A stretch of DNA of 64,000 nucleotides from a virus. The stretch is from the IMG/VR virus record IMGVR_UViG_3300047550_006186; one strand, 5' to 3'. Numbering within the stretch: position 1 is the stretch's first letter; every line of letters begins with the position of its first letter. Below are positions 15,802 through 44,757 of this stretch, piece after piece. The notes under the pieces are model-generated. The model saw only the letters and a program-made list of their open reading frames with translations, had not been told where the DNA came from and ran no database searches. The translations under genes and the position numbers were made by a program.

Positions 15802-15814
15802 CATGCTGTGATGT

Positions 15815-21510: not shown

Positions 21511-21587
21511 CAGCAACTGATCTTATATATAGGCATATGCAACAGGGATAGACCCTACCGCAGCCCAACAAGCAAAGGATTTTTGCT

Positions 21588-24206: not shown

Positions 24207-24218
24207 TTTTTGATCAGG

Positions 24219-24250
24219 TCAAACCGCAGTCTACTGTAGACTGCGGTTTT
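24219..24250 (+). terminator. Rho-independent terminator after nadV
   Basis: aaccgcagtcta-ctg-tagactgcggtt then ttctgtg. Confidence 0.6.
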
Positions 24251-24395
24251 CTGTGACAATTATTGAGTGCATTAAACCTTTTCTTTTAGAATATCAAGTG
24301 TTTTTTGTTTGACACAAGCATGAGTTATATGCATTCTAAGAGTGCTACATTTGAGAGATAAATTATCTCTCAAATGTAGTTCGAAGGACATACTC

Positions 24396-24953: not shown

Positions 24954-25003
24954 TTATTTTGATCATTATGCATGATCTACATAGATTATGATTAATCGGG
25001 CAG

Positions 25004-25581: not shown

Positions 25582-25595
25582 AGATAAGTAATTGT

Positions 25596-26114
25596 ATGAC
25601 CACACTGAAAGAGTTGACTTGGGAGAGTCATCAAAAAGCTGAGCAAACTGAGATCATGCAACAGTTGTTGAGCAACCAAATTACCAACAGGATGTATTGC
25701 AATTTGGTGTATACAAAATATCTTGTGTTTGCACAATTGGAAAACAGGATAGATTTTGTTACACCATGCTTGCATAGAGCACAAGCTGCCTTGAATGATT
25801 GGCAACAAATGCAATGCAGTTTGCCCAAATGTGTTCCCAGCTTGGAAACATATTTGGAATTGTTGCGAAAATTGGACAGTCATTTTGTATGGGCACATGT
25901 GTACGTGCATTATCTAGCCCCTTTGTATGGAGGACAGATCATCAAAAAGGTTATTCAACACAGATTTCCCACCAGCATGTATGAGTTTGATGACCCTATG
26001 AATGCAATAGCAGAAGTAAGATCAAAGGTGAATTTGGAGATGGCTGAGCAAGCCAATCTGGCATTTGATTATACTACAACATTTTTAAATGAACTTTATC
26101 TTGAGGAAAACTGA
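25596..26114 (+). CDS. ho1: Heme oxygenase
   Basis: LKELTWESHQKAEQTEIMQQL (proximal His helix) and HVYVHYLAPLYGGQIIKKVIQ ([21 protein letters not shown] in HO-1). Confidence 0.75.
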   Translation: MTTLKELTWESHQKAEQTEIMQQLLSNQITNRMYCNLVYTKYLVFAQLENRIDFVTPCLHRAQAALNDWQQMQCSLPKCVPSLETYLELLRKLDSHFVWAHVYVHYLAPLYGGQIIKKVIQHRFPTSMYEFDDPMNAIAEVRSKVNLEMAEQANLAFDYTTTFLNELYLEEN

Positions 26115-26743
26115 TGACTAATTTTATCCAGCTTGTAGACAAAACTGGTCACGCCTTTGAGCAAGTGATCCGCCAACACACCACCTATTTGCAATGCATT
26201 CCCACAGAGGATTTTGGTTGGACAAACTATAGATGGAGCAGCAGACAGTTTAGATTGGCACATGTGGAAAAATTCCAACAACCCAAGTTCAGTGTGTTGC
26301 ACATGGTGATATTTCCGCACGTTTACGATCCCAATCCTATTTTTGGATTTGATATTATTGCCAGCGACACAAAAGCCACAGGTGTATTTTTTGATCTTAG
26401 TCCCACTGTGGGACCAAGCTGCCAATTGTCTACTCAAACATGGCAAGATCCTAGAAATCGACCAGAATGGGGAGATATTTTCAGTGATTATTGGATAGCA
26501 TGTAGACCCTCCTTGGATGAAGCCCAACAAATCTGTAATTTGGCTGTGGACACATTACACCAATATCTGATTGATCTGAGTACAACTGCCAGCAGTTCCA
26601 AGATCAGAGATATAATTCAAGCACAAAATAGATACAGTCTACAACAGCGCAAAAATGAACACACTACCCGTGTGATCCTAAAACTTTTGGGAGAACAAAA
26701 AGGCCAACATTTTATTGAAAACATCCTGTTTCCCACCATTTGA
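26114..26743 (+). CDS. Ferredoxin-dependent bilin reductase (PebS/PcyA/PcyX family)
   Basis: FDBR family segment KFSVLHMVIFPHVYDPNPIFGFDIIASDTKATGVFFDLSP; ATGA overlap with ho1. Confidence 0.7.
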   Translation: MTNFIQLVDKTGHAFEQVIRQHTTYLQCIPTEDFGWTNYRWSSRQFRLAHVEKFQQPKFSVLHMVIFPHVYDPNPIFGFDIIASDTKATGVFFDLSPTVGPSCQLSTQTWQDPRNRPEWGDIFSDYWIACRPSLDEAQQICNLAVDTLHQYLIDLSTTASSSKIRDIIQAQNRYSLQQRKNEHTTRVILKLLGEQKGQHFIENILFPTI

Positions 26744-26986
26744 CACACTTGTCAACTATTGGCACAGGGCGGGGCTGGGATTTGGATACAGATGACCTTT
26801 TGTCTATTTGTGAGAGGTATTGGTGACATGCATTGCACATGCCCCATTCTTCCCCAGGGAACATATTAAAATTCCTGAGATGCAACAAGTGTGGGACAGC
26901 AGTTAAATGTTGCTGCCAGAAATCTGGCCTACTGCAGAGTGACATAATGCTTGTAATATGACAAAAACAGTTTATATTAGCCCTAC

Positions 26987-28411
26987 ATGCACGGAGTACC
27001 AGAAATGAAAAATGTCAACAAAACACATACTAAATCAGTGGACAGGGACGTTGCAAAGATCTACTTGCAGGAAGTGAGTCAAAACAAACTGCTCACTCAT
27101 GCACAAGAAATTGAACTCAGTCAGCAAATTGAAAATGCCAAACAGAATTTGATAGGTGTATTGTTTGCTATTCCCATGTGTGTGAAATATTTTAATCAAC
27201 AGATCATGTTGATTCTCAATGGCACAAGTGATGATTGTGTGGCATTTGATTGGGAAACAGTCAACAGTCAAAGCTTGATGCAAGAGATCACACATTTACA
27301 TGACATAATTGAATTGTATATGCAAAACAATTGTGTGGATTTGAATGCCAGGTTGCAAATTGGTGAAAAAATCAGCCAACTGCCTCTCAAGCTGGCATTT
27401 TTTGATATTGCCAGCAAGCCATTGCTGGACAAAGGCAGCAAATTGAGCCAAGTGCAGGGAGAATTCATGCGATTTGCTGCCAAACATAATATTAGCCGAC
27501 AGGTGTTTTTGGACAATCATTTGGAGCGTGTGCCTTGTTCCACATGGCAATCTTTTGTTGCCACACATGAATGTGTGGTGAAAAACTATCAACAACAAAT
27601 TACAGCCATTTGTGAACCCACTGGTTTGACTGTCAGTGAATTGACCACTGCGCTGGAAAAAATCAGGCAGTGGCAGAAAATCAAAGACAATAGTGTGGAA
27701 ACCATGCTCAAAAGCAACCTACGTTTGGTGGTAAGTGTGGCCAAAAAATATATCAGTGTGAGCAACACTCCCATGTTGGATCTTGTGCAAGAAGGCAATA
27801 TGGGACTGCTCAAGGCTATTGAAAAATACAATTGGAGACTGGGTTATAGATTCAGCACATATGCAACTTGGTGGATCAAGCAATGTGTACTCAAAGCCCT
27901 AAATGAACAACATCGTATCATTCGTGTGCCCAGTCACATGACACAACTGGTCAAAAGAGTGGGCAGAGCACAGGAAGAATTTTTAGCTTCGCATGGTTAT
28001 GAAGCTGGTATAGACGATCTAGCACAAATATTGGAAGTGGACTGTGAACAAATCCGCAAAGTATACACAGTTGCCCAGGGCACCATCAGCTTGGAAACAC
28101 CTATTGGTCAGGAAGAAGATCAGAACCTAGGCAGTGTGTTGGAAGATGTGGATCATGTTAACGCTTTTGACCTATTGGCACATGTGGATGCTCAAGAAAA
28201 CATGAGCAAAATATTGGCTCTACTCACTCCCAAAGAAGAGCGTGTGATTCGCATGCGATTTGGTATTGGCCTGGATAAAGAAAGCACTTTGGAAGACATC
28301 GGCACTGTGATGGGTGTCACACGAGAACGTATTAGGCAAATTGAACTCAAAGCTTTGCAAAAGCTCAAAAGCCCTGAATTTGCCGATAAAATTCAACAGG
28401 CCTGGCAGTGA
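26987..28411 (+). CDS. Sigma-70 family (group 1/2-like) RNA polymerase sigma factor
   Basis: Region 1.2 (AKIYLQEVSQNKLLTHAQEIEL), region 2 (NLRLVVSVAKKYISVSNTPMLDLVQEGNMGLLKAIEKYNWRLGYRFSTYATWWIKQ), region 3 (IRVPSHMTQLVKRV), region 4.2 (LEDIGTVMGVTRERIRQIELKALQKL); likely start ATG 27005 after GGAG. Confidence 0.85.
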   Translation: MHGVPEMKNVNKTHTKSVDRDVAKIYLQEVSQNKLLTHAQEIELSQQIENAKQNLIGVLFAIPMCVKYFNQQIMLILNGTSDDCVAFDWETVNSQSLMQEITHLHDIIELYMQNNCVDLNARLQIGEKISQLPLKLAFFDIASKPLLDKGSKLSQVQGEFMRFAAKHNISRQVFLDNHLERVPCSTWQSFVATHECVVKNYQQQITAICEPTGLTVSELTTALEKIRQWQKIKDNSVETMLKSNLRLVVSVAKKYISVSNTPMLDLVQEGNMGLLKAIEKYNWRLGYRFSTYATWWIKQCVLKALNEQHRIIRVPSHMTQLVKRVGRAQEEFLASHGYEAGIDDLAQILEVDCEQIRKVYTVAQGTISLETPIGQEEDQNLGSVLEDVDHVNAFDLLAHVDAQENMSKILALLTPKEERVIRMRFGIGLDKESTLEDIGTVMGVTRERIRQIELKALQKLKSPEFADKIQQAWQ

Positions 28412-28496: not shown

Positions 28497-28742
28497 ATGC
28501 GTAAACGTATTATGGGGTCTACCTCTGCTCAAGCCAAAAAACCTGCCAATAAAACTCTAGTGTATTGTACTCTCAATGATAGCAAATGCAAGGGACTGAT
28601 TGTTCTCAAAACTGAATATCAGCTCACAGTACAAATGCCCACTGGGTGTGTTTTGCACATGGTTCGCCCACAAGGACGCAAACTGTATGTGTGTTATGCA
28701 GGTCAACTGGAATTTGTCAGTGATGGATGGGCTACAACCTAG
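28497..28742 (+). CDS. Hypothetical small basic protein (81 aa)
   Basis: ATG in frame of ORF 28314..28742; preceded by perfect palindrome gtgcaatat-tat-atattgcac (28468-28488). Confidence 0.35.
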   Translation: MRKRIMGSTSAQAKKPANKTLVYCTLNDSKCKGLIVLKTEYQLTVQMPTGCVLHMVRPQGRKLYVCYAGQLEFVSDGWATT

Positions 28743-28783
28743 TGAACTACCACACCCTAATGGTGTGGTAGTTCACTCAGTGT
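28741..28783. repeat. GTGAACTACCAC palindromic repeat (15-bp perfect hairpin)
   Basis: gtgaactaccacacc-ctaat-ggtgtggtagttcac; family shared with IS element A right end. Confidence 0.6.
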
Positions 28784-30078: not shown

Positions 30079-30379
30079 CTGCGAGCGGAAGACCACTGGC
30101 TTGTCAAGCCAGTGGATGGATAGCGAGTGGATAAATTATTTTTGATATATTGCATTTCTTTCAATTTCACAGCATAAATAAGCTGTCACTTTAACAAGTG
30201 GACTAGGGCAGGAAGTGCCCAGTACGCCTGTGGAGTCCGATCAGACCTGTGGGGCTGGTGGTTGTGCTAGGACGCACATAAAACCCCAGAAATGGGGCAC
30301 GCGATAACCAAGCACACAAACCCCACGGGCAAGGACTACGACGCAGGAAGCTACAGTCCTTTAGGGCGTAGTACTTCAC
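30079..30379 (+). mobile_element. About 300-bp MITE related to IS element A (diverged LE + shared interior + RE)
   Basis: gcgagcggaagaccactgg...gccagtggatggatagcgag (LE-like), interior ggactagggcaggaagtgcc, RE cgcaggaagctacagtcctttagggcgtagtacttcac. Confidence 0.45.
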
Positions 30380-30438: not shown

Positions 30439-31044
30439 ATGAACATTTGTGCATTGGCATTGGTGTTACTGCTGGATGTAAGCAGCAGTGTGACTCCCGA
30501 ACGTTATGCTTTACAAAAACAGGGGTTGTTGACAAGCTTTCAAGATCCCAGCATACAAAGATTGATGCTCAGTCAAAATCCTGGAGGCATGGCTGTGACA
30601 GTTTTTGAATGGAGCACAGGAGCACAACAGGTAATCCCCTGGCATCACATTCAAACTCCAACTGATGTGGAGAAATTTGTTGAGCAGATCAACAATTTAG
30701 ATAGAGCCCAAGTTGATGGAGTCACAGCCATAGGCGTGGCACTGGAAGCAGGTATTGCCAGCTTGGAACAAGCACCATGTGTGCCTGAAAGAAAAATACT
30801 GGATGTGAGTGGAGATGGTGCCAACAACAGCGGCATTGATCCATCGCACTTGCGAGACCAGGCCCAAACTCAAGGCATAACGATAAATGGTTTGCCAATT
30901 TTGAATCCAAATGAACCTGACCTTGAAATTCATTATAGGAAACAGGTTGTCACCATGGATGGTTTTGTGATAGCCAGCGAAGGGTTTGAAGATTTTGCTA
31001 GAGCATTGCGACGCAAACTCATACTGGAAATAGCTGGGCAATAA
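30439..31044 (+). CDS. DUF1194 / vWA-like domain protein
   Basis: LALVLLLDVSSSV (MIDAS-like DxSxS) and DVSGDGANNSG. Confidence 0.55.
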   Translation: MNICALALVLLLDVSSSVTPERYALQKQGLLTSFQDPSIQRLMLSQNPGGMAVTVFEWSTGAQQVIPWHHIQTPTDVEKFVEQINNLDRAQVDGVTAIGVALEAGIASLEQAPCVPERKILDVSGDGANNSGIDPSHLRDQAQTQGITINGLPILNPNEPDLEIHYRKQVVTMDGFVIASEGFEDFARALRRKLILEIAGQ

Positions 31045-31201
31045 ATAAGCAAATGGCAATGACTTTTGCACAAGTTAAAGAAAACAAACTGGTCAGACGT
31101 TTGACACTGATTGGGTCAGTGTGTGGAGCCCTCATGGCAATCTACAACTTTGGCGATGTATGGGACAAACTGGGTCTTCCCAGACCAATTTTTGTTCAAG
31201 A

Positions 31202-31644
31202 GTATTACATATTTTCATTCATTTCGCAAGTGTTTGTATGCAATTATTAAAAACCAATAAAAGATACATATGATTACCTATTTGGCTGATTCCTTGAATT
31301 CAAGGAAATCAATTTAGACTACTTGATTCAGTTATAAATCATTGGGGTAGACGAAATCAATTCTGGCGAGTGGGCTTGGCCCAGCAACGGATAGAACATG
31401 CATGCGAAGAAAACGGCGTCCGGTTAACTCGCGTACATGCAGCATACACATCGCAAACTTGCAGTGCATGCGGGGTCAAACACAAGCAATCGCGCCAAGG
31501 CGAACGATTCTCGTGTTTGAGTTGTGGATATGAAGTAGATGCCGACTTGAATGGCGCTATCAATATCCGCAACAGAGGAGCATATAGTCCCTCTGTTAAA
31601 AAAATATAAGATCATTTATAGAAATATATGATCTCAATAACTAT
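31202..31644 (+). mobile_element. Internally deleted copy of IS200/IS605-family element B
   Basis: LE (gtattacatattttcattcatttcgcaag...) and RE (...aacagagggactatatgctcctctgtt...ctcaataactat) identical to element at 48641-50029 in inverse orientation; retains only last 79 codons of tnpB. Confidence 0.6.
31370..31609 (+). pseudogene. tnpB: TnpB C-terminal fragment (79 aa)
   Basis: 77/79 identical to C-terminus of ORF 48676..49794. Confidence 0.6.
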
Positions 31645-31711
31645 ATACTTTTAAAGATTTAGTCTTTGAAATGTGTGAAGTGGGAATGCAAAGATTGATT
31701 GGAGATAAAAA

Positions 31712-32941
31712 ATGAGCAAGCTCTTATTAGAAATGGGTGATCACTATGTAAGTGATTTCATTAAGAATGATAGTGAAGGTGAAGGTCGCAAGAAATATAG
31801 TCTAGACTTGTACCAAGACGAAAAATATGGCGCAGTGCGTCTTCATTGTATCGCACCAGCAGATACTATGTGGGGACAGTATTGGTATCGCAGTGGTATC
31901 AATGAAAGCATGATAAAAGAATTGCAAGGCATTGTTGCAGAAGTAACATCAAGAGTTAAGACTAAAGATGGTGATATCTGGCTTGACATTGCATGTAACG
32001 ACGGCACACTATTAAAGAACGTTCCAGACAACATGATCAAGCTTGGTATTGATCCGTGTGATGACAGCTATCATGTAGAGAGTTCTAAAGTTGCAAATAA
32101 GGTTGTTCAGGACTATTTCAGCTATGATGCATGGATTAAAACTGGTTACGGTGATGCTAAAGCTAAAATCATTACTTGCATTGCGATGTTCTACGACTTA
32201 GATGATCCAGTTCCATTCGTACAAGACTTGTATAAAGTCCTTGATGACAATGGTACACTAGTTTTACAAATGAGCTATACACCATTGATGGTGAAGCAGC
32301 TTGCGTTTGACAATATCTGCCATGAACACGTTTTCTATTACGACTTGAAGAGTATAACTAGACTCTTTGCTGAGAATGGATTTATAGTTGTTGACTGTAG
32401 CCTTAACGATACCAACGGCGGAAGCTTTAGAGTGTATCTCCAAAAGGATGTTGCAGAAGTTTCTAGCTTTGCTACAGCACCTTTGCGTGACGTATGCAAT
32501 TTCAGAGTGAACAGTATTCTAGCATATGAAAGAATGGAGAACGATATCTCTGATCCAGAGACATGGAAACACTTTGGCGAAAGACTTGCTGCACTGAAGA
32601 CTCAAGTTGTTTCGTTTGTACATCAAGCCGTCAAAGAAGGCAAAACGGTCTATGGGTATGGCGCAAGCACTAAGGGCAATACATTGCTCCAGTACTTTGG
32701 CCTAGATCACAACTACATTACTGCTATTGCAGAACGTAGCCCATATAAATTCGGCATGAAGACTATTGGCACTAACATTCCAATTATCAGTGAAGAAGTA
32801 ATGCGCCTGGCAAAGCCAGACTACATGCTAGTATTGCCTTGGCACTTCATTGACGAATTCGAAAAGCGTGAACAAGAATACTTGAAGGGCGGCGGTACAT
32901 TCATTGTTCCTTGTCCTGAATTTAAATTGATCGTAGGTTAA
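31712..32941 (+). CDS. SAM-dependent C-methyltransferase (NDP-hexose C-methyltransferase-like)
   Basis: SAM motif LDIACNDGTLL plus C-methyltransferase C-terminal domain (HEHVFYY, LPWHF); low-GC island. Confidence 0.6.
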   Translation: MSKLLLEMGDHYVSDFIKNDSEGEGRKKYSLDLYQDEKYGAVRLHCIAPADTMWGQYWYRSGINESMIKELQGIVAEVTSRVKTKDGDIWLDIACNDGTLLKNVPDNMIKLGIDPCDDSYHVESSKVANKVVQDYFSYDAWIKTGYGDAKAKIITCIAMFYDLDDPVPFVQDLYKVLDDNGTLVLQMSYTPLMVKQLAFDNICHEHVFYYDLKSITRLFAENGFIVVDCSLNDTNGGSFRVYLQKDVAEVSSFATAPLRDVCNFRVNSILAYERMENDISDPETWKHFGERLAALKTQVVSFVHQAVKEGKTVYGYGASTKGNTLLQYFGLDHNYITAIAERSPYKFGMKTIGTNIPIISEEVMRLAKPDYMLVLPWHFIDEFEKREQEYLKGGGTFIVPCPEFKLIVG

Positions 32942-32942
32942 C

Positions 32943-33581
32943 ATGTATAACGTTATCACTTCTGTAGGAAGACTACAGAATATTTCACTGATCAAGAATC
33001 ACATTCAGCCTCAGAATATTCTTTGGCATGTGATTACTGATGAAGACATTGGATTTAGTTTAAAATTCGCTGAGCCATGGATAACAAGTTACGTATGTCC
33101 AAACGATCATGTAGAATTTTGGGCTAGATGCCATGGGGCATTGAATTGGTTTATTGAAACTCAAGAAATCAATGATGATGAAATGTATTGCTTTCTGAAT
33201 GACGATGATGGCTATGAGTCAGAATTCTTTAAAAAAGTGGATGCTGCTATTTTAGAAGTAAAGGCGAATTACAACGTGGATCCTGATGTGATTATCGTCA
33301 GTATGCAAAGAGGTGACACAACACCAAGCGATGCAGGTGCAGAAAGACAACATGGAACGGATACTTTATTTGCACATCCTGATAATATGAGACCTGGTCG
33401 TGTTGGACTTGAGCAACTTATAATTCGTGGTAAGTTATTGAAAAAATATAGACTTGCTATGGATATTAATGGTGATGGTATATTCATCAGTCAAGTTACA
33501 CAAGACAATCCTTTTACATGTGCACCAAACATCAATGTGCTATTTAATTACTTTGAGCCAGGACGTTGGAATAAGAAATGA
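32943..33581 (+). CDS. Hypothetical protein, possibly nucleotide-sugar transferase-like
   Basis: DDD-containing segment CFLNDDDGYESEF; same low-GC operon; weak. Confidence 0.35.
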   Translation: MYNVITSVGRLQNISLIKNHIQPQNILWHVITDEDIGFSLKFAEPWITSYVCPNDHVEFWARCHGALNWFIETQEINDDEMYCFLNDDDGYESEFFKKVDAAILEVKANYNVDPDVIIVSMQRGDTTPSDAGAERQHGTDTLFAHPDNMRPGRVGLEQLIIRGKLLKKYRLAMDINGDGIFISQVTQDNPFTCAPNINVLFNYFEPGRWNKK

Positions 33582-34516
33582 AAAAGGTTGCGCTAGTTAG
33601 TGGACCAGTTCAGAATTGTGGCATATACTATTGGGGAACCAATGTGTATGCTATCCTCAAGAACAGCAAAAAATATTCATTCCATTTTATAACCGCATTT
33701 AGCCATTCCGAATTCTTAGAGAAGACTGAGAGTATGGACGTTATCATCTATAATTGGCATTCTAGTACTATGCCTTGGTGTACGTCAGAAATATTTACGG
33801 CAACATCAAAGCCACAATTCCTAATTCATGGACACACAGCAAATTCGGAACTGATTAATTTTGATGGCATTGACGAATTCATTACAGTAGCCCCAACACC
33901 AAATTACGGCACAAAAAACTTTCATTCTGGCCATAGACCCATAACATATTATGACGATATAGTGTATAATGAACCCAAGGGTGTAATAAAAATAGGCACT
34001 AGTGGCATAGGTCATAATGGTAAAAACATAGAGACAATGATGAACCTCATCAACAGTCAATTTGATGAACCCGTTATATTTAATGTTCACTGGAGTGTTG
34101 GCGCCTTTACTGGTTCTAATCGTGATACTCTAGAATCAAAACTGAAGCGTCTACATGCATTAGCAAAGCCAAATGTTACTTTAAATTTTACTCTAGAGCA
34201 GCTATCTGAATACGATAACATAAAGTGGCTAAACTCTAATGACATTAATTTGTATATCTACCCAAGCTATGACTGCGATGGTGTAAGTGCTAGTATAGAT
34301 AAAGCATTAGCAGCTAAGAAGCCTATTGGAGTAAACGACAGTAACTTCTTTAAGCACATCATCTCTGATGAAATTAATATAGGAAAGACACCAATAAAAT
34401 CTATAATTAGCAATGGCATAACTCCACTAATGAAATATTATGATATGTGGAATCCTAAAACATTCTTGGAACAATACGAAGGTATATTGGATGAATTTTA
34501 TAAGAAGACACTATAA
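33578..34516 (+). CDS. Hypothetical protein (312 aa) in sugar-modification-like cluster
   Basis: ATGA overlap with upstream gene; low GC. Confidence 0.4.
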   Translation: MKKVALVSGPVQNCGIYYWGTNVYAILKNSKKYSFHFITAFSHSEFLEKTESMDVIIYNWHSSTMPWCTSEIFTATSKPQFLIHGHTANSELINFDGIDEFITVAPTPNYGTKNFHSGHRPITYYDDIVYNEPKGVIKIGTSGIGHNGKNIETMMNLINSQFDEPVIFNVHWSVGAFTGSNRDTLESKLKRLHALAKPNVTLNFTLEQLSEYDNIKWLNSNDINLYIYPSYDCDGVSASIDKALAAKKPIGVNDSNFFKHIISDEINIGKTPIKSIISNGITPLMKYYDMWNPKTFLEQYEGILDEFYKKTL

Positions 34517-35177
34517 CAATTGGCCAGGCACTTGTTGTTACTCTTTCAATAAGAGCAATGTAATTAACGAAACTTTCAGTCAAGCATATCAAGACATATT
34601 TGTGCTTTCTGTATTAGATGGTAAGACTGACGGCAGATATCTAGAGATTGGCTGCAATGTTCCAGACTACACCAACAACACATATTTACTATCAAAAGAA
34701 TATAACTGGACAGGGGTTAGTGTTGACTGTATACAATCTCTGATTGATTCATGGTCAGTACAAAGAAGCAAAGATATCTTCAAAGTATGCGACGCACTTA
34801 CAGTAGATTTTGGCCAAATGATGGCTGAGAATTATGATGGTAGAAAAGTTTTAGACTATCTACAGTGCGACATTGAACCACCAGATAATACTCTGAGAGT
34901 TCTTAAGAGACTTCCTCATGATGAATACCGATTCAAAGTCATCACATTAGAAACGGATGCTTATACTGGTGCAGATGGTATGAGAGTTAGAAGAGAGAGT
35001 AGAGATTTTCTATCCAATCTAGGATACGAAATAATTGTCGGTGACGTATTAGTCGATGGCTGCAATCCATTTGAGGACTGGTGGGTAGCACCAGAACTAG
35101 TCAACATGGAAGTTGCGAACAATATCAAAGCACAAGCTTTAATCACACAGCATCCAGCACAGTTACTTTTCAAGTGA
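34491..35177 (+). CDS. FkbM-family-like methyltransferase
   Basis: QDIFVLSVLDGKTDGRYLEIGCNVP resembles FkbM N-terminal SAM-binding segment. Confidence 0.45.
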   Translation: MNFIRRHYNNWPGTCCYSFNKSNVINETFSQAYQDIFVLSVLDGKTDGRYLEIGCNVPDYTNNTYLLSKEYNWTGVSVDCIQSLIDSWSVQRSKDIFKVCDALTVDFGQMMAENYDGRKVLDYLQCDIEPPDNTLRVLKRLPHDEYRFKVITLETDAYTGADGMRVRRESRDFLSNLGYEIIVGDVLVDGCNPFEDWWVAPELVNMEVANNIKAQALITQHPAQLLFK

Positions 35178-35190
35178 ATTACACTAGGTG

Positions 35191-35232
35191 TACTACTGTT
35201 GGTCTAAAGACCAACAGTAGTACACCGAAAAA
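35191..35232. repeat. Perfect 19-bp-stem palindrome (variant of GTGAACTAC repeat family)
   Basis: ggtgtactactgttggtct-aa-agaccaacagtagtacacc. Confidence 0.55.
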
Positions 35233-35377
35233 TAAACTAGCTCAACAGATGGGTGGATTTCCAACTTATAATAAAATAAGTGATGGATAATTTATTAATC
35301 AATTTGTTGCAACATACCATTCTGCAACCATTGTTAATATAAACAAAATCTTATACGTTCACAATTAAAGTAACTTT

Positions 35378-36694
35378 CTAGTACAAACAAGCAGCGATAG
35401 CATAAATCAGTATCCCGCTCTTTGTAGATGAAAATCTAGAAACAGCACTCGTTACCGAACTCAGCTGAACACGATACTTCAATTTCGCGTTTTTGATCGA
35501 GTTGTGAAAATCAACCCATGAAGTGATTTTGGTGATATCAAGCCCGTCTTTCTTCCATTGATTCAGTGGTTTGATGTCATCCAACTTCAGTGGCGGATAC
35601 ATACACAGTGATTTTTGATATTTGTAGTTGACCCTACGGGCGATTTCCCAGGCCGCGGCACAGGGGTCAGGTAGTTCCGAATGCAAGAGGTTACCAATTG
35701 TGCTCGAGTAAGCGCAGTTGACCTCGGTTACTTCAATGCCCAGTTGATCCGATAGTTTTGTGATAGTCCATTGAAATAGCTCCCTATTCCATTGGTTGTT
35801 GACCAACCTGTTGAAGTTGCGACCTTTTTTGGCATCTCTGGCACCCATTGTTAGCTGTTCGATGCCAATTTCGCTAACTCGATAATGCCTAGCCAATCGA
35901 ATGATTGCGTGAGCTATTTCCTTGGTCTCGTGATCTCGCTTGTTGTCATCAACTCTTGATTCTTTGCTCCAAGCGTAAACCTTTGATTTGACTAGATGTT
36001 CTCGTCCATCTTTGAAATCAATTATTGTGATACCAATATAATTTGGGTTTTGGTCAATGCCCATTATGCGATAGTTCAAATGGTTAAGGATTATTGGTTG
36101 TTTTTCTTGTTCGAAACTCAAATAAATTTGACCTCTCTTGAGTTGGACTTGAATTGGGATTGATCCAATATTGTTAATCAGATGCTGGATTTGTTTGCGT
36201 TGATTGCGACCAACTTGAAATGGGATTTCGACTCTTGTGTGTTTATTTGGCTTGTAGATCAAAATATCGTCAGCTAACTTACTGAAATCAAACAATCTAT
36301 TTGACTTTTGAACAGCTTCGCCTTGTAGCATCATTGGTCTGAGTCGCAGTTGGTGCCATTCGGATGTGGTGATTTTCCCACTAGATCGCTTGAAAAAATT
36401 GGCTCTGCTGCCCCACACAATTTTGGCAGATTTGCGTTGACCTGATTTGATCTGTGATTGGTGCGCTGCATATTGGGTTTGTGCATCTAGGATCGCACAT
36501 TGAGCTATCCAGGAATTCACCGAGTCTTCGTTGTTGGATTTAGGATTTGACCATCTCTCTTTGACCAGAGATCTGATTTCTTTTTGCTTCAACCCTTGGC
36601 TAGTTCGCTCGTAAGCATACCGAAATATTGCAGAGTACTGCAATTGATAGGGCAAAAGCACAATCGGCGTTGAAAGTTTGAGTGTGGTAATCAT
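35378..36694 (-). CDS. tnpB: IS607-family TnpB (OrfB)
   Basis: 438 aa; RuvC-like/zinc-finger C-terminus, IS607-type accessory protein adjacent to serine recombinase. Confidence 0.65.
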   Translation of the reverse strand: MITTLKLSTPIVLLPYQLQYSAIFRYAYERTSQGLKQKEIRSLVKERWSNPKSNNEDSVNSWIAQCAILDAQTQYAAHQSQIKSGQRKSAKIVWGSRANFFKRSSGKITTSEWHQLRLRPMMLQGEAVQKSNRLFDFSKLADDILIYKPNKHTRVEIPFQVGRNQRKQIQHLINNIGSIPIQVQLKRGQIYLSFEQEKQPIILNHLNYRIMGIDQNPNYIGITIIDFKDGREHLVKSKVYAWSKESRVDDNKRDHETKEIAHAIIRLARHYRVSEIGIEQLTMGARDAKKGRNFNRLVNNQWNRELFQWTITKLSDQLGIEVTEVNCAYSSTIGNLLHSELPDPCAAAWEIARRVNYKYQKSLCMYPPLKLDDIKPLNQWKKDGLDITKITSWVDFHNSIKNAKLKYRVQLSSVTSAVSRFSSTKSGILIYAIAACLY

Positions 36695-36707
36695 TATTGC
36701 TACTTAT

Positions 36708-37310
36708 TTATGCTTGTTCTGTAGAAACCGCATCAATTAGGCATTTTTTTGCGCTTTTTAGTACTTTGCGTCTATTGCTGTACATCTTCATTGAGAAATG
36801 ATGAATGATTGAAATTAGATCTTGTGTCAATTCAGTTTCAAACGGAGTTATCTCGGCGTCATTTATGACAACAATTTTTGTGTTATATCGATCGAATAGT
36901 CTGGTGAAATAATCAAAACCAAATCGAGTAAGTCGATCTCGATATGTCACATAGACTGTGTCTACATTACCGGACATAACTAGATCCAATAACTCATTGA
37001 ATCCTTTACGATTTTCGTTCATGCCGCTGGCTATATCACTGATCGTCTGAACTGGATATCCTTGTTTAATAACAAAGTCTTGCACCAATTGCTGTTGACT
37101 AATAAGATCAGACTCCTGTTTCTTGTCACTGACTCGAGTGTAAGCTACGTGTATCCTCGGTCCTGATGTTGATTTGATTTCTGGGTAATAGAGATAACTG
37201 CTCTTCCCGACCCTAATGAAGTCAACTGTGTTGTTAATTCGCCAGTTCCGCAAAGTCTGTTTGCTAATGGCATATTTTTTCATAAATTGGCGTGCTGTGA
37301 TATATTTCAT
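36708..37310 (-). CDS. tnpA: IS607-family serine recombinase (TnpA) with N-terminal MerR-like HTH
   Basis: MerR-like HTH (ISKQTLRNWRINN) + resolvase catalytic domain (AYTRVSDKKQ...VYVTYRDRLTRFG). Confidence 0.75.
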   Translation of the reverse strand: MKYITARQFMKKYAISKQTLRNWRINNTVDFIRVGKSSYLYYPEIKSTSGPRIHVAYTRVSDKKQESDLISQQQLVQDFVIKQGYPVQTISDIASGMNENRKGFNELLDLVMSGNVDTVYVTYRDRLTRFGFDYFTRLFDRYNTKIVVINDAEITPFETELTQDLISIIHHFSMKMYSNRRKVLKSAKKCLIDAVSTEQA

Positions 37311-37359
37311 ACTTGTATTTATAACTTTTTTGCGCTATAAATGCAAATAACAATATAAT

Positions 37360-38286
37360 ATGGAACAAGAAGGTGAATCACAAGTGGATGGAAAAAAAGA
37401 TAGAGCACTGGGAGCCTTTGTGGGCTTGGCAGTTGGTGATGCACTAGGCGCACCCGTGGAATTTAAAGAACCTGGAGAATTTTCTCCAGTCAAGGATTAT
37501 GCCTACAGCTATGTGTGGCAAATACCACCCGGCTATTGGACAGATGACACCAGCATGGCTGTGTGTTTGGCCGAAAGCATCCTACACAAGAATGATGTGC
37601 TGCCAGACGACATTTTGCAGAGGTTTGTACGCTGGTATGTTCATGGTGAGAACAGCCCTACCGGTAGATGTTTTGATATCGGCAGCACAACCAGAAGCAA
37701 TATCAAGCGTTACATTGACCAAGGAGTATATACACCTGCTCCCAACATTGCGTGGCAGAGTGGCAACGGTGGTATAATGAGATTGAGCCCCGTTGCAGTT
37801 AGATACTGGCAGGATCCAGAACTGGCTGCTGAGTTGAGCATTGTGCAAAGCCAAACAACTCATGGAAGTGATGAATGTGTCAAATGCGCCGCAGATTTGG
37901 GAAAGCTTTTGGCAAGAGCTATTCAAGGACAGCTAATTTGGCAAGAACTAGTTGATCAGCTAGGACAAATTTCTACCAACCAGATCAGCAACAGCGGGCA
38001 AGCCAGCACAACCTTGTTGGCAGCCAAATGGTGTGTGGCTACCACAAGCAATTTTGAAGATGCTGTGTGCAAAGCTGTGAATTTGGGTGGCGATGCTGAC
38101 ACAATTGGGGCTGTGACTGGCCAGATAGCTGGTGGCATTTATGGCTTGAATAGTATTCCAGAACGATGGAAACAAGGACTATATGATTATGCAAGGTTGT
38201 TGGATCTTGCTCAGAGGTTGTTTGATAAAGAATACCACAGGGGCGGGTGTTGGCTGGCTTTCCGCGGCAGCCCCCAAGACCCATGA
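37360..38286 (+). CDS. ADP-ribosylglycohydrolase (ARH/DraG family)
   Basis: GAFVGLAVGDALG, TDDTSM, GGDADTIGAVTGQIAGGIYG. Confidence 0.8.
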   Translation: MEQEGESQVDGKKDRALGAFVGLAVGDALGAPVEFKEPGEFSPVKDYAYSYVWQIPPGYWTDDTSMAVCLAESILHKNDVLPDDILQRFVRWYVHGENSPTGRCFDIGSTTRSNIKRYIDQGVYTPAPNIAWQSGNGGIMRLSPVAVRYWQDPELAAELSIVQSQTTHGSDECVKCAADLGKLLARAIQGQLIWQELVDQLGQISTNQISNSGQASTTLLAAKWCVATTSNFEDAVCKAVNLGGDADTIGAVTGQIAGGIYGLNSIPERWKQGLYDYARLLDLAQRLFDKEYHRGGCWLAFRGSPQDP

Positions 38287-38400
38287 TTTGCCCAGGTGGT
38301 GAAATTGATAACCACCCTGCTTGCGTCTGTAGGCCCACTAGTAGAGTCAGTGGTTTGAGGGGCCATCCAGTGGAGGTTCAAATCCTCTCGGATGCACCAA

Positions 38401-39204
38401 TTATTTTTTGCACACAAGAGCTCTTGCTTGTGCAAGAGCTCTTGTGTTCACAGGCCAAATGGCTCGGCGAATATTTTTTGCATCAGGTGTGGGAAATTGG
38501 ATGCCAGTATAGCCTTCAATAGTTTCCACAGTGGTTTGAACAGCAGCTATTTCACCACCCAGGTCAGTTTGATGCGGAAACAAAAATGCCAACGTTTCAC
38601 CAGTTTGGTTGTTGATGACAATTTTGTAAAATGCTTGTGGAACAATCACATGGTTTTGCAGACGTGGACCGGCATAATCATATATGCTGCCAGTATAAAT
38701 GGTGAGACTGCCCATGTTGTAGGCCCAGCTACGGATAATAGCCTCCAACTCTCGCCACAATCCACGATTTAGGCCAGGCAATTGAGGTGCCATGTTGCTG
38801 AGTAAAAAACTTTCCTTTTGCACTTGAGGATGCCAGCTGAGATCAGCGTTGGGAGCCAAGTGCCCCATGTCATAGCCACTCTTTCTATAGTCATTCAATT
38901 CTGCTCTTTGACCTCTGGGCAAACTTTGGTCAGCCTCAAAGGCATCTTGCCGGGGCAAGCAAGCAAGTGTTTGGTCTTTGTTCAAGGTATACACCACCCA
39001 GGCAGCCACCAGAGCACGATTGTCGTGCATGAGAGCATAACCATGCCTGCATATGGGTTGACCTGTGGGGAGATTGATCTGTGGAAACCCAAAAGGTGCC
39101 AAACTTGCACAAGTTTGCCAGGGCCTGGGAGGCAGTTGGTCGGCTGCAATACTGCTGCTGGAAATGCCTACTATGAGTAGGGTGGCAAAAATAATTCTAA
39201 TCAT
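38401..39204 (-). CDS. nucA: Secreted non-specific DNA/RNA endonuclease (Serratia NucA / Endonuclease_NS family)
   Basis: Signal peptide; His-Me finger region SGYDMGHLAPNAD...N (DRGH-like). Confidence 0.65.
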   Translation of the reverse strand: MIRIIFATLLIVGISSSSIAADQLPPRPWQTCASLAPFGFPQINLPTGQPICRHGYALMHDNRALVAAWVVYTLNKDQTLACLPRQDAFEADQSLPRGQRAELNDYRKSGYDMGHLAPNADLSWHPQVQKESFLLSNMAPQLPGLNRGLWRELEAIIRSWAYNMGSLTIYTGSIYDYAGPRLQNHVIVPQAFYKIVINNQTGETLAFLFPHQTDLGGEIAAVQTTVETIEGYTGIQFPTPDAKNIRRAIWPVNTRALAQARALVCKK

Positions 39205-39331
39205 GGATCTTCCTTGAGGGTTGACTTGAGTGAACTACCACGCCCTAAAAGGATATGTCTTCAACAAAAAGTCTACCATAAATATTTAGGAGATACACTC
39301 CCACATCAATGTTATCAATAGGTTAGCGCAA

Positions 39332-39706
39332 ATGCCTCTCACACACAAGGACCAACAGTTATGGAACGCTGTGATCAAAGATGTGCAACCTCTGGATAGT
39401 GTGCAAATAGCACGTCAAGACAATGCCCCGTCCAGAAAAATTGTACCTAGAAAACCTCCCAATCACCCTACTGTGGATTTGCATGGTCTGACTTTGGCGG
39501 ATGCGCATGCTCGTATCCAAGATCATTTGCATGAGACCAAACAATCCTACAAATTTGTCACAATCATCACCGGCAAAAGTGGACAGTTAAGACAAGATGT
39601 GCCCAGATGGATTGAACATATGCCAGGAGTGCGCAAGATTGATCCAGCTGAAGACCTGGGCAGTGTGAAAGTTTGGTTCAAGAACACTCGGCAAAAGAAC
39701 AAATAG
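39332..39706 (+). CDS. Smr-domain protein
   Basis: VDLHGLTLADAHARIQDHL...VTIITGKSG. Confidence 0.7.
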   Translation: MPLTHKDQQLWNAVIKDVQPLDSVQIARQDNAPSRKIVPRKPPNHPTVDLHGLTLADAHARIQDHLHETKQSYKFVTIITGKSGQLRQDVPRWIEHMPGVRKIDPAEDLGSVKVWFKNTRQKNK

Positions 39707-39710: not shown

Positions 39711-40996
39711 TGTGAACTACCACGCCCTAAAGGGCTGTGGCTTCCTGCTTCATCGTAGTGGCTGATATCTCACCCCAATGGGTGAGAATATCTGCCATCA
39801 CATCCACAGGCGCTTGGGGCAGTTCCTGCCCTGCATGATCTATTGTCCATTGTTGATGTCCCCAGTTGCGAATATTGATGGCTGCATTCGTGTCTCTGTG
39901 CTGTGTTGTGCCGCAGGCGTCGCAATGGTATTCTCGCTGAGCGAGGTCCATGTGACTTTTGCGGGTGCCACATGCACTACAGGTCTTGCTGCTGGGTAGC
40001 CACTGATTGATCTTGACAAGATGATGACCTTGCCTTTGGCACTTGTAGGCCAATGCACCAATCAACATAGCCCAATCCGCATCTGCTATGGCCTTGGCTG
40101 TGGCCTTGCTCTTGCGTCTCATCTCATCAATTTTCAGTGTTTCAACACACACCAGGTCATGTGATTTGGCTATTCTCGCACTTGTCTGATGTATATGGTT
40201 AGTTCTTTGGCAGCGAACCAGATCATGGGTTCGGGCCAGTTTTTGTTTTGCTTTTGTTCTATTCCTACTTGCTTTTTGTTTTCTGGATAGCTTGCGTTGT
40301 AACTGTTTGATACGTGCTTGTTTCTTCCCCAATGGCTTGGGATTTGCAACTAGCTCACCAGTTGATAGTGCTGTGAATTTGCTGTTGACATCCACACCCA
40401 CTGGGTTGGTTATGTTTTGAACCAATGGCAATTCAGTCACATCAACCACAAATGAGGCATACCAACCACCTGGTGTTTGAATCACAGTCACACCCTTAAA
40501 CTTGGGAAGATCTCGATGGAGTACAATCTTGATATCACCAATCTTGGGTAGATATAGCTTGTTGTTGTCAACTCTCACGTTTTGTTGATATCTAAAACTT
40601 ATAGGAGTTGTGTATTTGCTTTTGAACCGTGGGAATCCAGCACCTGTCTTTTTCATATTTTTCAGTGCTGTATCCAAGTCACTTATGCTCTGTTGTAGTA
40701 CTTGACTGTAGGTATCTGATAACCATTTGTTGTGTTTCTTCAATTCAGTCAGTTGTTTGCACATATCAAACTGCCAAACAAACTTTTTAGTATTGGCATA
40801 TTCATCAATGTTGATCTTGAGGAAATGATTGTATAGATATCGCACTGCTCCGCCCACAGAACGCATGTGTTGTTCCTGTTGTGGGGTTGGATAAATTCTA
40901 TAGCGATATCGCTGTTTCATAAATCAATTGATATAATCTATTCAAAAAGCCGCTATCCATCCAGGGCCTAAAGGCGCCTGGCTTTCCGCGGCGGGA
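39711..40996 (-). mobile_element. IS200/IS605-family element A, copy 1 (tnpB only, no tnpA)
   Basis: RE gtgaactaccacgccctaaagggctgtggcttcctgcttcatcgtagtggctgatatctcacc; LE ...ccgctatccatccagggcctaaaggcgcctggctttccgcggcggg; near-identical to copies at 50165 and 63009. Confidence 0.75.
39727..40920 (-). CDS. tnpB: TnpB (IS605 OrfB family, RuvC-like + Zn finger)
   Basis: 397 aa; MKQRYRYRIYPT N-terminus, C-terminal CSACG...CDACG zinc finger; 3 near-identical copies. Confidence 0.85.
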   Translation of the reverse strand: MKQRYRYRIYPTPQQEQHMRSVGGAVRYLYNHFLKINIDEYANTKKFVWQFDMCKQLTELKKHNKWLSDTYSQVLQQSISDLDTALKNMKKTGAGFPRFKSKYTTPISFRYQQNVRVDNNKLYLPKIGDIKIVLHRDLPKFKGVTVIQTPGGWYASFVVDVTELPLVQNITNPVGVDVNSKFTALSTGELVANPKPLGKKQARIKQLQRKLSRKQKASRNRTKAKQKLARTHDLVRCQRTNHIHQTSARIAKSHDLVCVETLKIDEMRRKSKATAKAIADADWAMLIGALAYKCQRQGHHLVKINQWLPSSKTCSACGTRKSHMDLAQREYHCDACGTTQHRDTNAAINIRNWGHQQWTIDHAGQELPQAPVDVMADILTHWGEISATTMKQEATAL

Positions 40997-41301
40997 GATA
41001 ATTATCAATAACTATGCAGGTGCAGCATAGCGGCTATTGCGCCACGTCACCAACGTGACTTTCATGGGTTGGAGACCCATCGTCTGCTCCACTCTTTTCT
41101 ATCTTAAATAGTTGCATGAAAATCCATGAACTGCTCAAAGCCCCAACTATTAGAAGCGTGACCACTCGCAGTGGGCAGATTGATCGTCGCCGCGCAGAAA
41201 GGGTGGAAGATCCCAGGGGATATTTTGCCAAGGCCAGCAGTCCTCTTATGCCCAAACGCAAAAAATAGATATTTCTCTCAAGGTTTCCTGTGTCTTACCT
41301 C

Positions 41302-41610
41302 CTGCCGCGGAAAGCCAGGCGCCTATAGCCCCTGGAGGGATAGCGGCTTGTGACACAACTATTTTTTTTTGAATCTGGTTGCATTTGTGTTAACCTCTAT
41401 GTATAAACAATATTAGTGATGTAGCAAGAGTCCCAACGGGCTTGGGATATCCGGACAGCAATACCGCAGGGACTAGGGCAGGAAGTGCCACGAGTCCGTA
41501 AAAAATATCGCCAGTGGACCAGAACACACACCAATGAATAAGTCCATTGGCTAAAGGTGAATTGGAATCTAGCAGGAAGCCACAGCCCTTTAGGGCGTGT
41601 GGTACTTCAC
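41302..41610 (+). mobile_element. About 310-bp MITE derived from IS element A (LE + short interior + RE)
   Basis: cctgccgcggaaagccaggcgcc...ggatagcgg (LE) ... ggactagggcaggaagtgcc ... agcaggaagccacagccctttagggcgtgtggtacttcac (RE). Confidence 0.5.
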
Positions 41611-44718: not shown

Positions 44719-44757
44719 TCGTGAACTACCACGCAGAGCGTGGTAGTTCACTCAGCT
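44719..44757. repeat. GTGAACTACCAC palindromic repeat (14-bp stem) between convergent genes
   Basis: gtgaactaccacgc-agag-gcgtggtagttcac. Confidence 0.55.

Follow-up and report, generated by a model that had tools for sequence, protein, structure and literature searches.

The block at 31644-35185 of the window (the 64-kb stretch of viral DNA analyzed here) appears to be a phage glycan cassette that was gained horizontally and then trimmed and partly broken by insertion sequences (IS); we assign this reading a probability of roughly 0.7. The source unit would have been a five-gene phage cassette encoding GDP-mannose 4,6-dehydratase (Gmd), a 3-C-methyltransferase, a GT-A and a GT-B glycosyltransferase and an FkbM-like methyltransferase, of which the block would represent the 3' four-fifths, as foreign DNA. 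The recipient would be an unrelated, large and IS-rich cyanophage encoding rIIA/rIIB and DnaE. The window phage carries rIIA/rIIB and a DnaE-type polymerase, with best phage matches just 32-44% identical, and searches of IMG/VR, JGI metagenomes and GTDB genomes turned up no relative of it.

The four ORFs between the bracketing IS are all full length and intact, and no transmembrane segments were found in their products (Table 1). The first gene had been described as being of the NDP-hexose C-methyltransferase type, and this assignment holds: its product matches PF08484 (Methyltransf_14, C-terminal; 3e-43), PF13489 (3e-13) and 4rv9 (E 5e-39), and the alignment with TcaB9 covers residues 5-404 (residues 25-413 of TcaB9). 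The protein is homologous over its full length to TylC3, TcaB9 and KijD1, and the C-terminal Methyltransf_14 domain is common to all. Unlike these enzymes, it has no detected Pfam zinc-binding N-terminal domain, with one Cys in residues 1-70. A fold check on the next two products, previously listed as unknowns, returned GT-A for the first and GT-B for the second; the DDD motif already noticed in one of them is the invariant triad of the GT-A protein. No Pfam model was found for either family. The FkbM-like methyltransferase is retained as a distant member, being 36% identical (E 3e-33) to the 'FkbM family methyltransferase' of Synechococcus phage DSL-LC02, which itself falls just short of the cut-off (22.6 versus 22.7 bits). 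PF05050 gave no match in the window protein and weak matches in 8 of 40 members of its family (best 2.5e-4). Note that the mechanical ORF starts at 34440 and that homologues are ~225 aa long, aligning from residue ~18. The four genes are thus predicted to encode sugar-nucleotide- and glycan-modifying enzymes, as the preliminary description had proposed.

Table 1. Features of the cassette block and its surroundings (window coordinates).
Feature	Position	Strand	Evidence or remark
DUF1194 gene	30439-31044		left flank
Terminator-like hairpin + T-run, 3' of DUF1194 gene	31170..31192	+	CTGGGTCTTCCCAG + ACCAATTTTT
Element B internal-deletion derivative (IS200/IS605-type, TnpB-only)	31201..31644	+	identity to both ends of 48641-50028
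gmd (GDP-mannose 4,6-dehydratase) 3' remnant, last 23 codons + stop	31644..31715	+	YTFKDLVFEMCEVGMQRLIGDKK, then stop
NDP-4-keto-6-deoxyhexose 3-C-methyltransferase homologue (TylC3/TcaB9/KijD1 type), 409 aa	31712..32941	+	PF08484, PF13489, 4rv9
GT-A fold glycosyltransferase, 212 aa	32943..33581	+	D87-D88-D89 invariant
GT-B fold (GT4-like) glycosyltransferase, 312 aa	33578..34516	+	
Distant FkbM-like SAM methyltransferase, 228 aa	34491..35177	+	
Perfect palindrome, 19-nt arms	35187..35226	.	folding + repeat matches
AT-rich spacer between palindrome and IS607	35227..35354	.	
IS607-family element, ends approximate	35355..37335	-	tnpA profile match + L096 relative
tnpB-like gene, 438 aa, divergent	35378-36694	-	TIGR01766, 27 bits vs cut-off 32
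tnpA, serine recombinase	36708-37310	-	NF033518 IS607 transposase equivalog (NCBIfam), 158.5 bits, cut-off 110

The methyltransferase of the cassette is encoded in 192 viral stretches, and more than 80 viral contigs carry the cassette without IS, several of them with T4-like marker genes. Element A, element B and IS607 are absent from the ~90 cassette-bearing contigs. gmd lies directly upstream in 70 of the 80 loci fetched; the complete five-gene order occurs in L009, L038, L039 and L051, and an expanded version in DSL-LC02. The closest T4-like copy resides on L089, a 159-kb contig encoding PhoH, gp59, gp32 and a T4 baseplate. Compared with L089, 31644-33588 is 91.4% and 33570-35185 is 83% identical at the DNA level, with no L089 match outside 31644-35185. 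The 3-C-methyltransferase shares 96% of its amino acids with the L089 protein (dN/dS 0.06). For three of the four genes dS is 0.14-0.47, and dN/dS across the four (0.06-0.30) mostly reflects evolution from before the truncation. The genes flanking the cassette in other contigs are absent from the window, except for two small membrane proteins encoded elsewhere in it. The IS-free copies sit in phages unrelated to the window phage. In its intact form the cassette circulates among low-GC viral contigs from fresh water, several being T4-like.

Among known systems, the sugar/cell-envelope clusters of T4-like cyanophages (Kyanoviridae) have the gene order and families of the window cassette. The DSL-LC02 cluster comprises Gmd, methyltransferase, GDP-fucose synthase, GT, GT4, FkbM and further GTs, and S-SCSM1 and P-SSM2 have gmd and fucose-synthase genes in the same kind of cluster. 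Besides the FkbM-like protein, the window methyltransferase (33% identity, E 8e-62) and GT-B (27% identity) can be aligned with DSL-LC02 counterparts. The most similar copies (91% DNA identity) come from uncultured T4-like contigs, and none is from a named phage. In contrast to the cyanophage clusters, the window copy lacks gmd and a reductase, resides in a non-T4-like phage and has IS ends as its bounds. Published work reads the clusters as modifying the cell surface or glycans, an interpretation that is not experimentally proven (PMC10611076, PMC9602691). Chlorovirus PBCV-1 likewise combines a GT-A, another GT and a sugar methyltransferase with a GDP-mannose-dehydratase pathway that feeds them: it encodes its own GMD, and its A064R, which acts on capsid N-glycans, unites a GT-A rhamnosyltransferase, a second GT and a methyltransferase domain (PMC9614988). 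However, these functions are domains of one protein of a eukaryotic virus and a sequence relationship is undetectable, making this a functional analogy only.

The terminator-like hairpin 3' of the DUF1194 gene is the final recognizable feature of the left flank. It is followed by the deletion derivative of element B that the preliminary description had placed here: its left-end (31201-31343) and right-end (31343-31644) parts are 96% and 98% identical to the respective ends of the full copy (minus strand), 943 bp are missing internally, and the two copies fix the element boundaries to the nucleotide. A 79-aa C-terminal fragment of TnpB is retained at 31370-31609 (PF07282, Cas12f1-like_TNB, E 1.2e-21). 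The right end of the derivative adjoins the gmd remnant, which is 78% identical to residues 321-343 of L015 Gmd (tblastn). Intact gmd homologues match PF16363; in L003, L004 and L015 the gene product reads KILNWKPE followed by YTFKDLVFEMCDVEMKSLIGDK. Because the left IS truncates gmd, the cassette's own first gene, the IS damaged the cassette, and delivery by IS is unsupported.

With gmd lost, the four remaining genes could be a dead relic that yields no product and awaits decay. Consistent with this, gmd is down to 23 codons and tblastn detected no other gmd in the 64-kb window, the block has no 4-ketoreductase at the place where DSL-LC02 has a GDP-fucose-synthase-like gene, and an upstream promoter search gave none that was convincing. 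We nevertheless regard a relic as unlikely: none of the four ORFs is broken and they hardly vary in the population (identity of at least 99.7% in six contigs, obtained in four other sequencing runs), and a separate reductase is likewise missing from the minimal five-gene cassettes in L009 and L039. Moreover, gmd is common in cyanobacterial hosts, which could provide the substrate.

At the right edge, homology to L089 ends at 35185, about 2 nt before the start of an IS right-end terminus (35187/8). The perfect 19-bp hairpin reported at 35191 exists, with 19-nt arms (35187-35205 and 35208-35226) that are 100% complementary, but lies ~4 nt from that position. This palindrome is the longest short-range inverted repeat of the window and folds into 18 bp with a 4-nt loop (z -7.2 for the containing fold, 35170-35345). 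Its first part reproduces the terminal 9 nt and subterminal hairpin of an element-A-like (A') IS200/IS605 right end; the complement of that terminus makes up the rest. Its matches at window positions 62206-62237 (30/32 nt) and at L096 271-300 (29/30) both run on into element-A-like right-end sequence, and the motif family has 14 occurrences in the window. Contrary to the earlier suggestion, the hairpin is not what closes the island, and a role as island-specific terminator was rejected; it is a palindromic copy of an IS terminus belonging to a repeated family. The 35187 hairpin and its relatives resemble PATE/MITE-like and REP-like IS200/IS605 derivatives in that they reuse the subterminal hairpin and terminal 9 nt of a right end, but they differ in their palindromic form (terminus, hairpin, terminus complement; 31-40 nt), for which we know of no described type. 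The adjoining spacer has no other match within the window.

IS607 was correctly recognized through tnpA, which passes its equivalog cut-off; its second gene encodes a divergent TnpB-like protein, scoring below threshold. The latter protein has no Pfam match and no CxxC (zinc-finger) motif; it gave a profile-versus-PDB match to a TnpB/Cas12f-type RuvC region (E 0.028), and D214 and E279 are invariant and D343 nearly so (≥90%) across 869 relatives. L096 carries a 67%-identical IS607 element, with similarity dwindling ~20 nt beyond the tnpB stop. IS do lie on both sides of the four genes, which is unsurprising given the IS density of the window (~16 IS-derived segments in 64 kb, including 7 large ones between 25 and 51 kb). 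Short IS200/IS605 derivatives joining left and right ends occur at 25004-25587 and 41295-41610; the window contains no Y1 transposase or RAYT gene.

We infer that transfer came first and IS trimming second. After entry, IS200/IS605-type elements would have inserted into the cassette, and recombination between IS copies probably deleted all DNA outward of their right ends. The left deletion would have taken gmd except for its final 23 codons, and the right one all DNA more than 8 nt after the final stop codon. IS607 would be an independent insertion ~130 nt beyond the right edge. IS200/IS605 elements are not known for deleting adjacent DNA, and the trimming requires recombination between paired IS copies that are now gone. 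Alternatively, IS shared by donor and recipient (element B at the left edge, an A'-type element at the right) could have allowed a double recombination that copied the cassette from a co-infecting phage or from the host; the IS would then have delivered the cargo, but without transposing. At either edge of the shared DNA an inward-pointing IS right-end terminus lies within 0-2 nt, the same IS types occur in the unrelated phage-like contig L096/L099, and element A is visibly mobile within the population. However, none of the ~90 cassette-bearing contigs has any of the three elements, and the 31-40 nt of IS sequence kept on the right are too short to prove a former full element. We consider this route quite improbable.

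The claim of a low-GC, compositionally foreign island is borne out: GC is 0.38 in the block versus 0.457 in the remaining window, no other 3.5-kb stretch of the window has a GC as low, and the closest cassette copies (IMG/VR contigs) have GC 0.35-0.42, mostly 0.35-0.40. GC3 of the four genes (0.28-0.39) overlaps the low tail of the background (0.47 ± 0.10). This overlap, further low-GC stretches at 46-52 kb and IS so dense that any block ends up bracketed would fit genes long resident in the phage lineage, with low GC and IS neighbors being incidental. Such ancestry is very unlikely in view of the 91% DNA identity to a T4-like contig sharing nothing else, the dS values, the termination of homology exactly at IS termini and the extreme GC.

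The four-gene block is not a transposon. Despite IS sequence on each side, movement as a unit by the B derivative and IS607 (a composite or compound transposon) is effectively refuted: a TnpB-only IS200/IS605-type derivative and a serine-recombinase IS607 differ in family and have incompatible mechanisms, the derivative has a TnpB fragment but no transposase, the left element cuts gmd, flanking direct repeats (target duplications) are absent, and neither the window nor any collection yielded another copy of the unit. The block resembles composite transposons and IS-flanked genomic islands in having IS on both sides of a cargo with atypical GC, but the IS on its two sides are different elements. 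Of the "IS-delimited cargo island" in the preliminary description, the coincidence of edges with IS ends survives, more exactly than was then known; the IS neither delimit nor move a cargo unit, and the IS-free cassettes in other viruses further speak against delivery as such a unit.

For the phage, retention of the cassette would mean that Gmd of the host must now supply GDP-4-keto-6-deoxymannose, to be C-methylated at C3; the conserved gmd partner points, by synteny, to a GDP-sugar rather than a dTDP-sugar substrate. The methylated sugar would be reduced by an enzyme encoded outside the block, and the two soluble glycosyltransferases would build a short glycan that the FkbM-like enzyme would O-methylate. 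The pathway may not operate at all, given that the block encodes neither Gmd nor a 4-ketoreductase. As acceptor, DNA is improbable; our tentative first choice is a phage-intrinsic target, a virion protein, only slightly ahead of a host envelope polysaccharide.

The protein encoded at 31712-32941, the first of the four low-GC genes, carries a class I SAM-methyltransferase domain (PF13489, residues 73-227, E 2.9e-13) followed by the Pfam domain PF08484 (residues 234-402, E 3.2e-43). It showed full-length homology to the D-mycarose 3-C-methyltransferase 4rv9 (E 5.3e-39), and also matched TcaB9 (residues 5-404, E 2e-29) and the KijD1-type enzyme 5t64 (E 1.7e-27). Judged by this domain order and the full-length homology, which it shares with characterised members of the TylC3/TcaB9 type, the protein is a homologue of NDP-hexose 3-C-methyltransferases. 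Unlike TylC3/TcaB9-type enzymes, it is missing the N-terminal four-Cys zinc-binding domain: no Pfam zinc domain was detected at E <= 0.01, and residues 1-70 contain one Cys.

The other three proteins, of unassigned family, gave no match in sequence-profile searches against the PDB, and fold comparison alone succeeded. It returned both glycosyltransferase folds for which the preliminary description had wanted the genes at 32943..33581 and 33578..34516 checked. The first product, a GT-A (GT2-like) candidate, has a single Rossmann-like GT-A fold, in which D87-D88-D89, the DxD metal/nucleotide-sugar motif, is invariant across 39 sequences; no Pfam (including curated GT2 families such as Glycos_transf_2), NCBIfam or PHROG model matched it. 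The second, a GT-B (GT4-like) candidate, has the two-Rossmann-domain GT-B fold. Here the region of the E-x7-E motif reads D-x6-D (D234...D241), with only D241 nearly invariant. None of the 41 members of this family matches Pfam, and a homologue named GT4 by NCBI is 27% identical to the window protein. Both families are unseen by Pfam, NCBIfam and PHROGs. The protein encoded at 34491-35177 appears to be a distant FkbM-like methyltransferase. The FkbM model PF05050 did not match it at E <= 1 and matched 8 of 40 homologues weakly (best 2.5e-4); the homologue in Synechococcus phage DSL-LC02 (Kyanoviridae), an "FkbM family methyltransferase" according to NCBI, is 36% identical and scores 22.6 bits (cut-off 22.7). 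Hydrophobic segments were found in none of the four proteins.

IMG/VR contains 192 relatives of the 3-C-methyltransferase (65-92% identity). In 70 of 80 fetched loci a gene for GDP-mannose 4,6-dehydratase (gmd; PF16363, E 4e-142) lies directly upstream of it, and four loci (L009, L038, L039 and L051) have the complete order gmd / C-methyltransferase / GT-A / GT-B / FkbM-like. The nearest copy is on L089, a 159-kb contig with PhoH, gp59, gp32 and a T4 baseplate gene. In DSL-LC02 the cassette is expanded by a GDP-fucose-synthase-like reductase and extra glycosyltransferases. Among deposited phages, the sole match by megablast or blastn was the methyltransferase (65%) in a 735-kb uncultured phage. 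Amino-acid identities between L089 and the window differ from gene to gene (methyltransferase 96%, GT-B 75%); by these unequal values the cassette is itself mosaic. Some T4-like contigs carry an extra protein of ~323 aa, without known family, between GT-A and GT-B (L015, 11867-12838), which in L089 is fused to GT-A to give 535 aa (7471-9078).

The low GC content noted in the preliminary description was borne out: the four genes have GC fractions of 0.35-0.40, compared to 0.457 in the rest of the window, and form its lowest-GC 3.5-kb stretch. The overall GC of cassette-bearing loci is 0.35-0.42. Relative to L089, DNA identity (91% and 83%) is limited to the cassette, with dS of 0.14-0.47 in three of the four genes, and no flanking genes are shared between cassette contigs and the window. 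Identity, dS, GC and unshared flanks point to a T4-like origin of the cassette, foreign to the window phage. Separately, two small predicted membrane proteins are common to the window (9-212, 845-1117) and L039 (1473-1760, 2124-2408; 54-60%, tblastx); L039 carries an intact cassette, and the window copies lie 30 kb from the cassette.

At the left edge, the reported deletion derivative of element B, a TnpB-only IS200/IS605-type element, consists of both ends of the element with 943 bp deleted between them (31201-31644). A full copy encoding a 372-aa TnpB is present at 48641-50028 on the minus strand; the points where the two copies diverge, one at each end, fix the boundaries exactly. Homology of the window to five cassette contigs (L089, L090, L003, L004 and L015) starts exactly at 31644, the final base of the element B right end. 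In these contigs the homologous stretch is the gmd 3' end (...KILNWKPE/YTFKDLVFEMC...). The 72-nt stretch that leads from element B to the start codon of the methyltransferase still encodes YTFKDLVFEMCEVGMQRLIGDKK followed by a stop, with 78% identity to Gmd residues 321-343, and the 64-kb window contains no second gmd. DNA to the left of element B is unrelated; there, a terminator-like hairpin follows the DUF1194 gene (30439-31044). Thus, ~960 bp of gmd and anything upstream were lost in an event that ended at the IS.

By analogy to TylC3/TcaB9 and from the conserved synteny with gmd, the methyltransferase should act on GDP-4-keto-6-deoxymannose. Sugar transfer by GT-A and GT-B would follow, and the FkbM-like enzyme would add an O-methyl group to the product. 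Since gmd has been lost, the host would have to supply the substrate. That the cassette is a dead relic whose genes no longer work is a reading we consider unlikely: all four ORFs are intact, their dN/dS values of 0.06-0.30 indicate past purifying selection, and they are invariant across the contigs of the population. The block may therefore still be functional.

At the right edge, homology to L089 stops at 35185, 8 nt past the last stop codon, and a hairpin starts at 35187/8. The hairpin is present as reported, with perfectly complementary 19-nt arms (35187-35205 and 35208-35226), and is the longest short-range inverted repeat of the window. Its first 31 nt, GGTGTACTAC-TGTTGGTC-TAAA-GACCAACAG, match window positions 62207-62237 and positions 271-300 of L096, an unrelated phage-like contig, with one or two mismatches each. 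Both matching stretches run on into homology with the right end of element A (IS200/IS605 type). The 9-mer GTG(A/T)ACTAC, found 14 times in the window (0.37 expected), forms the terminus of all three element A copies that bear a right end (25004, 39712 and 50167) and also flanks palindromes at 9922, 28741 and 44721. These three palindromes and the one at 35187 reuse the terminal 9 nt and the subterminal hairpin of the element A right end. Given these matches and the 9-mer family, the hairpin is an IS right-end-derived palindrome, and not a terminator specific to the island that it had been thought to close. An intrinsic terminator was rejected, as a U-tract is present on neither strand and the hairpin belongs to the IS right-end family; an IS607 right end or omega-RNA end was not supported, the matches being to element-A-type right ends. 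The four palindromes may be REP/PATE-like elements or recombination scars.

Element A family members and related palindromes in the window
Feature	Position	Description
Palindrome at gene end	9922-9958	imperfect; GTGAACTAC / short stem-loop / GTAGTTCAC
Palindrome at gene end	28741-28777	perfect; GTGAACTAC / short stem-loop / GTAGTTCAC
Palindrome at gene end	44721-44751	perfect; GTGAACTAC / short stem-loop / GTAGTTCAC
Full element A copies	39712-41001 and 50167-51456	
Inverted element A copy	63003-64000	cut off by window end
Element A derivative	25004-25587	586-bp deletion derivative
Element A derivative	41295-41610	roughly 316 bp, only left and right ends, MITE-like
Element A solo right-end fragments	among 15813-15990, 30340-30379, 39230-39262	
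A' (element-A-like variant) right end	62207-62270	subterminal stem with compensatory changes relative to element A

The IS607 element, present as one copy in the window, begins about 130 nt to the right of the hairpin. Its description as a tnpA+tnpB pair held in full for tnpA and in part for tnpB. The ORF at 36708-37310 (minus strand), a serine-recombinase transposase of the IS607 family, scored 158.5 bits with NF033518, above the NCBIfam cut-off of 110, and matched PF00239 (E 4e-21). The adjacent 438-aa ORF (35378-36694, minus strand), which has the same orientation and begins 13 nt after tnpA, is a distant TnpB relative with weak similarity, also to TnpB/Cas12f RuvC regions (TIGR01766, 27 bits vs 32; PDB 8j1j, E 0.028). 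It has 869 relatives (E <= 1e-3), in which D214 and E279 never vary and D343 hardly does, a RuvC-like triad; this TnpB-like clade has VNPAYSSxIGN where the zinc-finger CxxC is expected, and no Pfam model. An element in L096 that is 67% identical to IS607 can be aligned no further than ~20 nt outside the ORFs, and this places the end of the element ~20 nt past the tnpB stop. GTDB scans of bacterial genomes revealed no second copies of IS607 or element A, an IMG/VR scan with the tnpB-like gene gave no match, and a near-identical IS607 copy was not found.

Contigs from SRR23086384 and SRR23086399 (L086 and L087) are 99.7% identical to the window up to 35455 (…CTCGTTAC), and their last 25 nt continue into the element A left end (GTCCCGCCGCGGAAAGCCAGGCGCC). 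In part of the population, therefore, a copy of element A is inserted 3' of TTAC (35452-35455) in the IS607 tnpB-like gene; TTAC is also the target of IS608. The phage population is polymorphic in its IS content, and its IS are active.

The preliminary description had proposed an IS-delimited cargo island. Foreign DNA with IS at its edges was indeed found, but the IS did not mobilise it; they eroded it instead. In the simplest history, the cassette would have been transferred into the window phage, IS200/IS605-type elements would then have inserted, and DNA outward of their right ends would have been lost. Hybrid flanks of exactly this kind would result if directly repeated copies of an IS recombined. 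Note that the IS-bracketing itself weighs little, because about 16 IS-derived segments lie in the window and the neighbouring block (37360-39706; ADP-ribosylglycohydrolase (ARH), tRNA-Leu(GAG), non-specific endonuclease and Smr protein) is equally bracketed, by IS607 on the left and element A on the right. Alternatively, IS copies common to donor and recipient could have captured the cassette by recombination; this is improbable, since elements A, B and IS607 are absent from about 90 cassette-bearing contigs and from the DSL-LC02 locus. We give still less credence to a capture footprint. Both cassette edges lie at inward-pointing IS200/IS605 right ends, and the element B derivative keeps a 302-nt right-end part whose flank, the gmd 3' end, is identical at 18/20 nt to gmd of T4-like phage contigs. 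Omega-RNA-bearing remnants using such a flank as TnpB guide could direct breaks or recombination between co-infecting phages, moving or eroding cassettes, with the palindromes at 9922, 28741, 35187 and 44721 as scars or landing pads. The element B left-end flanks (TTCAAG, GTTGGA) and gmd upstream of the breakpoint (CCAGAG) have no common target motif, and nothing found speaks in favour of the TnpB-guide idea. A composite transposon was rejected: the elements on the two sides come from different families and move by different mechanisms, one is a remnant that has no transposase and one cuts the cargo gene gmd. No IS is paired with itself (the element B derivative on the left; an A'-type right-end remnant, then IS607, on the right), the flanks TTCAAG/.../ATACTT show no target-site duplication, and the unit of element B derivative, cassette and IS607 is confined to contigs of the same phage population.

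The window encodes rIIA and rIIB (PHROG E 1e-131 and 2e-69), a DnaE-type polymerase, a sigma-70 factor, NAMPT, NMNAT-Nudix, heme oxygenase with a ferredoxin-dependent bilin reductase, and a fatty-acid desaturase. Four scattered tRNAs are present, and Rfam yielded nothing else. The window belongs to a large phage genome, and the gene set points to a cyanophage. Megablast found no close relative among deposited phages, the best rIIA matches being 32-44% identical. Contigs identical to the window come from JGI sample 3300042987 and from several SRA runs; in every case they break at IS repeats. Searches of IMG/VR with ARH, DUF1194 and a 244-aa neighbour revealed no relatives of the phage; in JGI metagenomes DUF1194 gave only a 35% match, on a contig of 1.8 kb, and looking up the exact DUF1194 and ARH proteins led back to the same population only. 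The desaturase, NMNAT-Nudix, NAMPT, heme oxygenase, bilin reductase and 474-aa sigma-70 genes form an auxiliary metabolic and regulatory run (20752-28411), broken by the 25004 derivative of element A. An 843-aa protein (58961-61492, plus strand) matches the shoulder and repeat domains of the Major Vault Protein (PF11978, E 3.8e-20; PF17795) and, weakly, SPFH/Band 7; its gene lies in a strikingly GC-rich patch (0.63, 59000-61000). Repeated promoter-like units (TGGTTGACA … 17 nt … TATAAT) occur in a short-ORF region at 10547-10586, 12809-12877, 13288-13365, 14161-14200 and 14460-14499, and are possibly early phage promoters; some precede a conserved leader that ends in ATGAG.

Surface glycans of virion or host and phage DNA sugars had been named as possible targets of the cassette. 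We lean slightly towards a phage-intrinsic acceptor, such as virion proteins, over host LPS, with DNA glycosylation least likely, because the enzymes are soluble, no export genes lie alongside the cassette, and the glycosyltransferase families are nearly restricted to viral and metagenomic sequences. Chlorovirus A064R provides a precedent for a virion-protein target (PMC9614988), and for gmd clusters of cyanophages the usual proposal is host LPS (PMC9602691, PMC10611076).

For annotation, the lesson is that IS on both sides do not make a mobile island in an IS-saturated genome; what informs is the gene cut short at the junction. IS are generally rare in lytic-type phage genomes. Here, the erosion of an auxiliary gene cassette by IS is resolved to the nucleotide inside such a genome. 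The five-gene cassette (gmd, 3-C-methyltransferase, GT-A, GT-B and FkbM-like methyltransferase) is compact and widespread in freshwater T4-like phages. If it puts a C- and O-methylated deoxyhexose on virions or host surfaces, this would bear on phage adsorption, superinfection exclusion or immune evasion during blooms of cyanobacteria.
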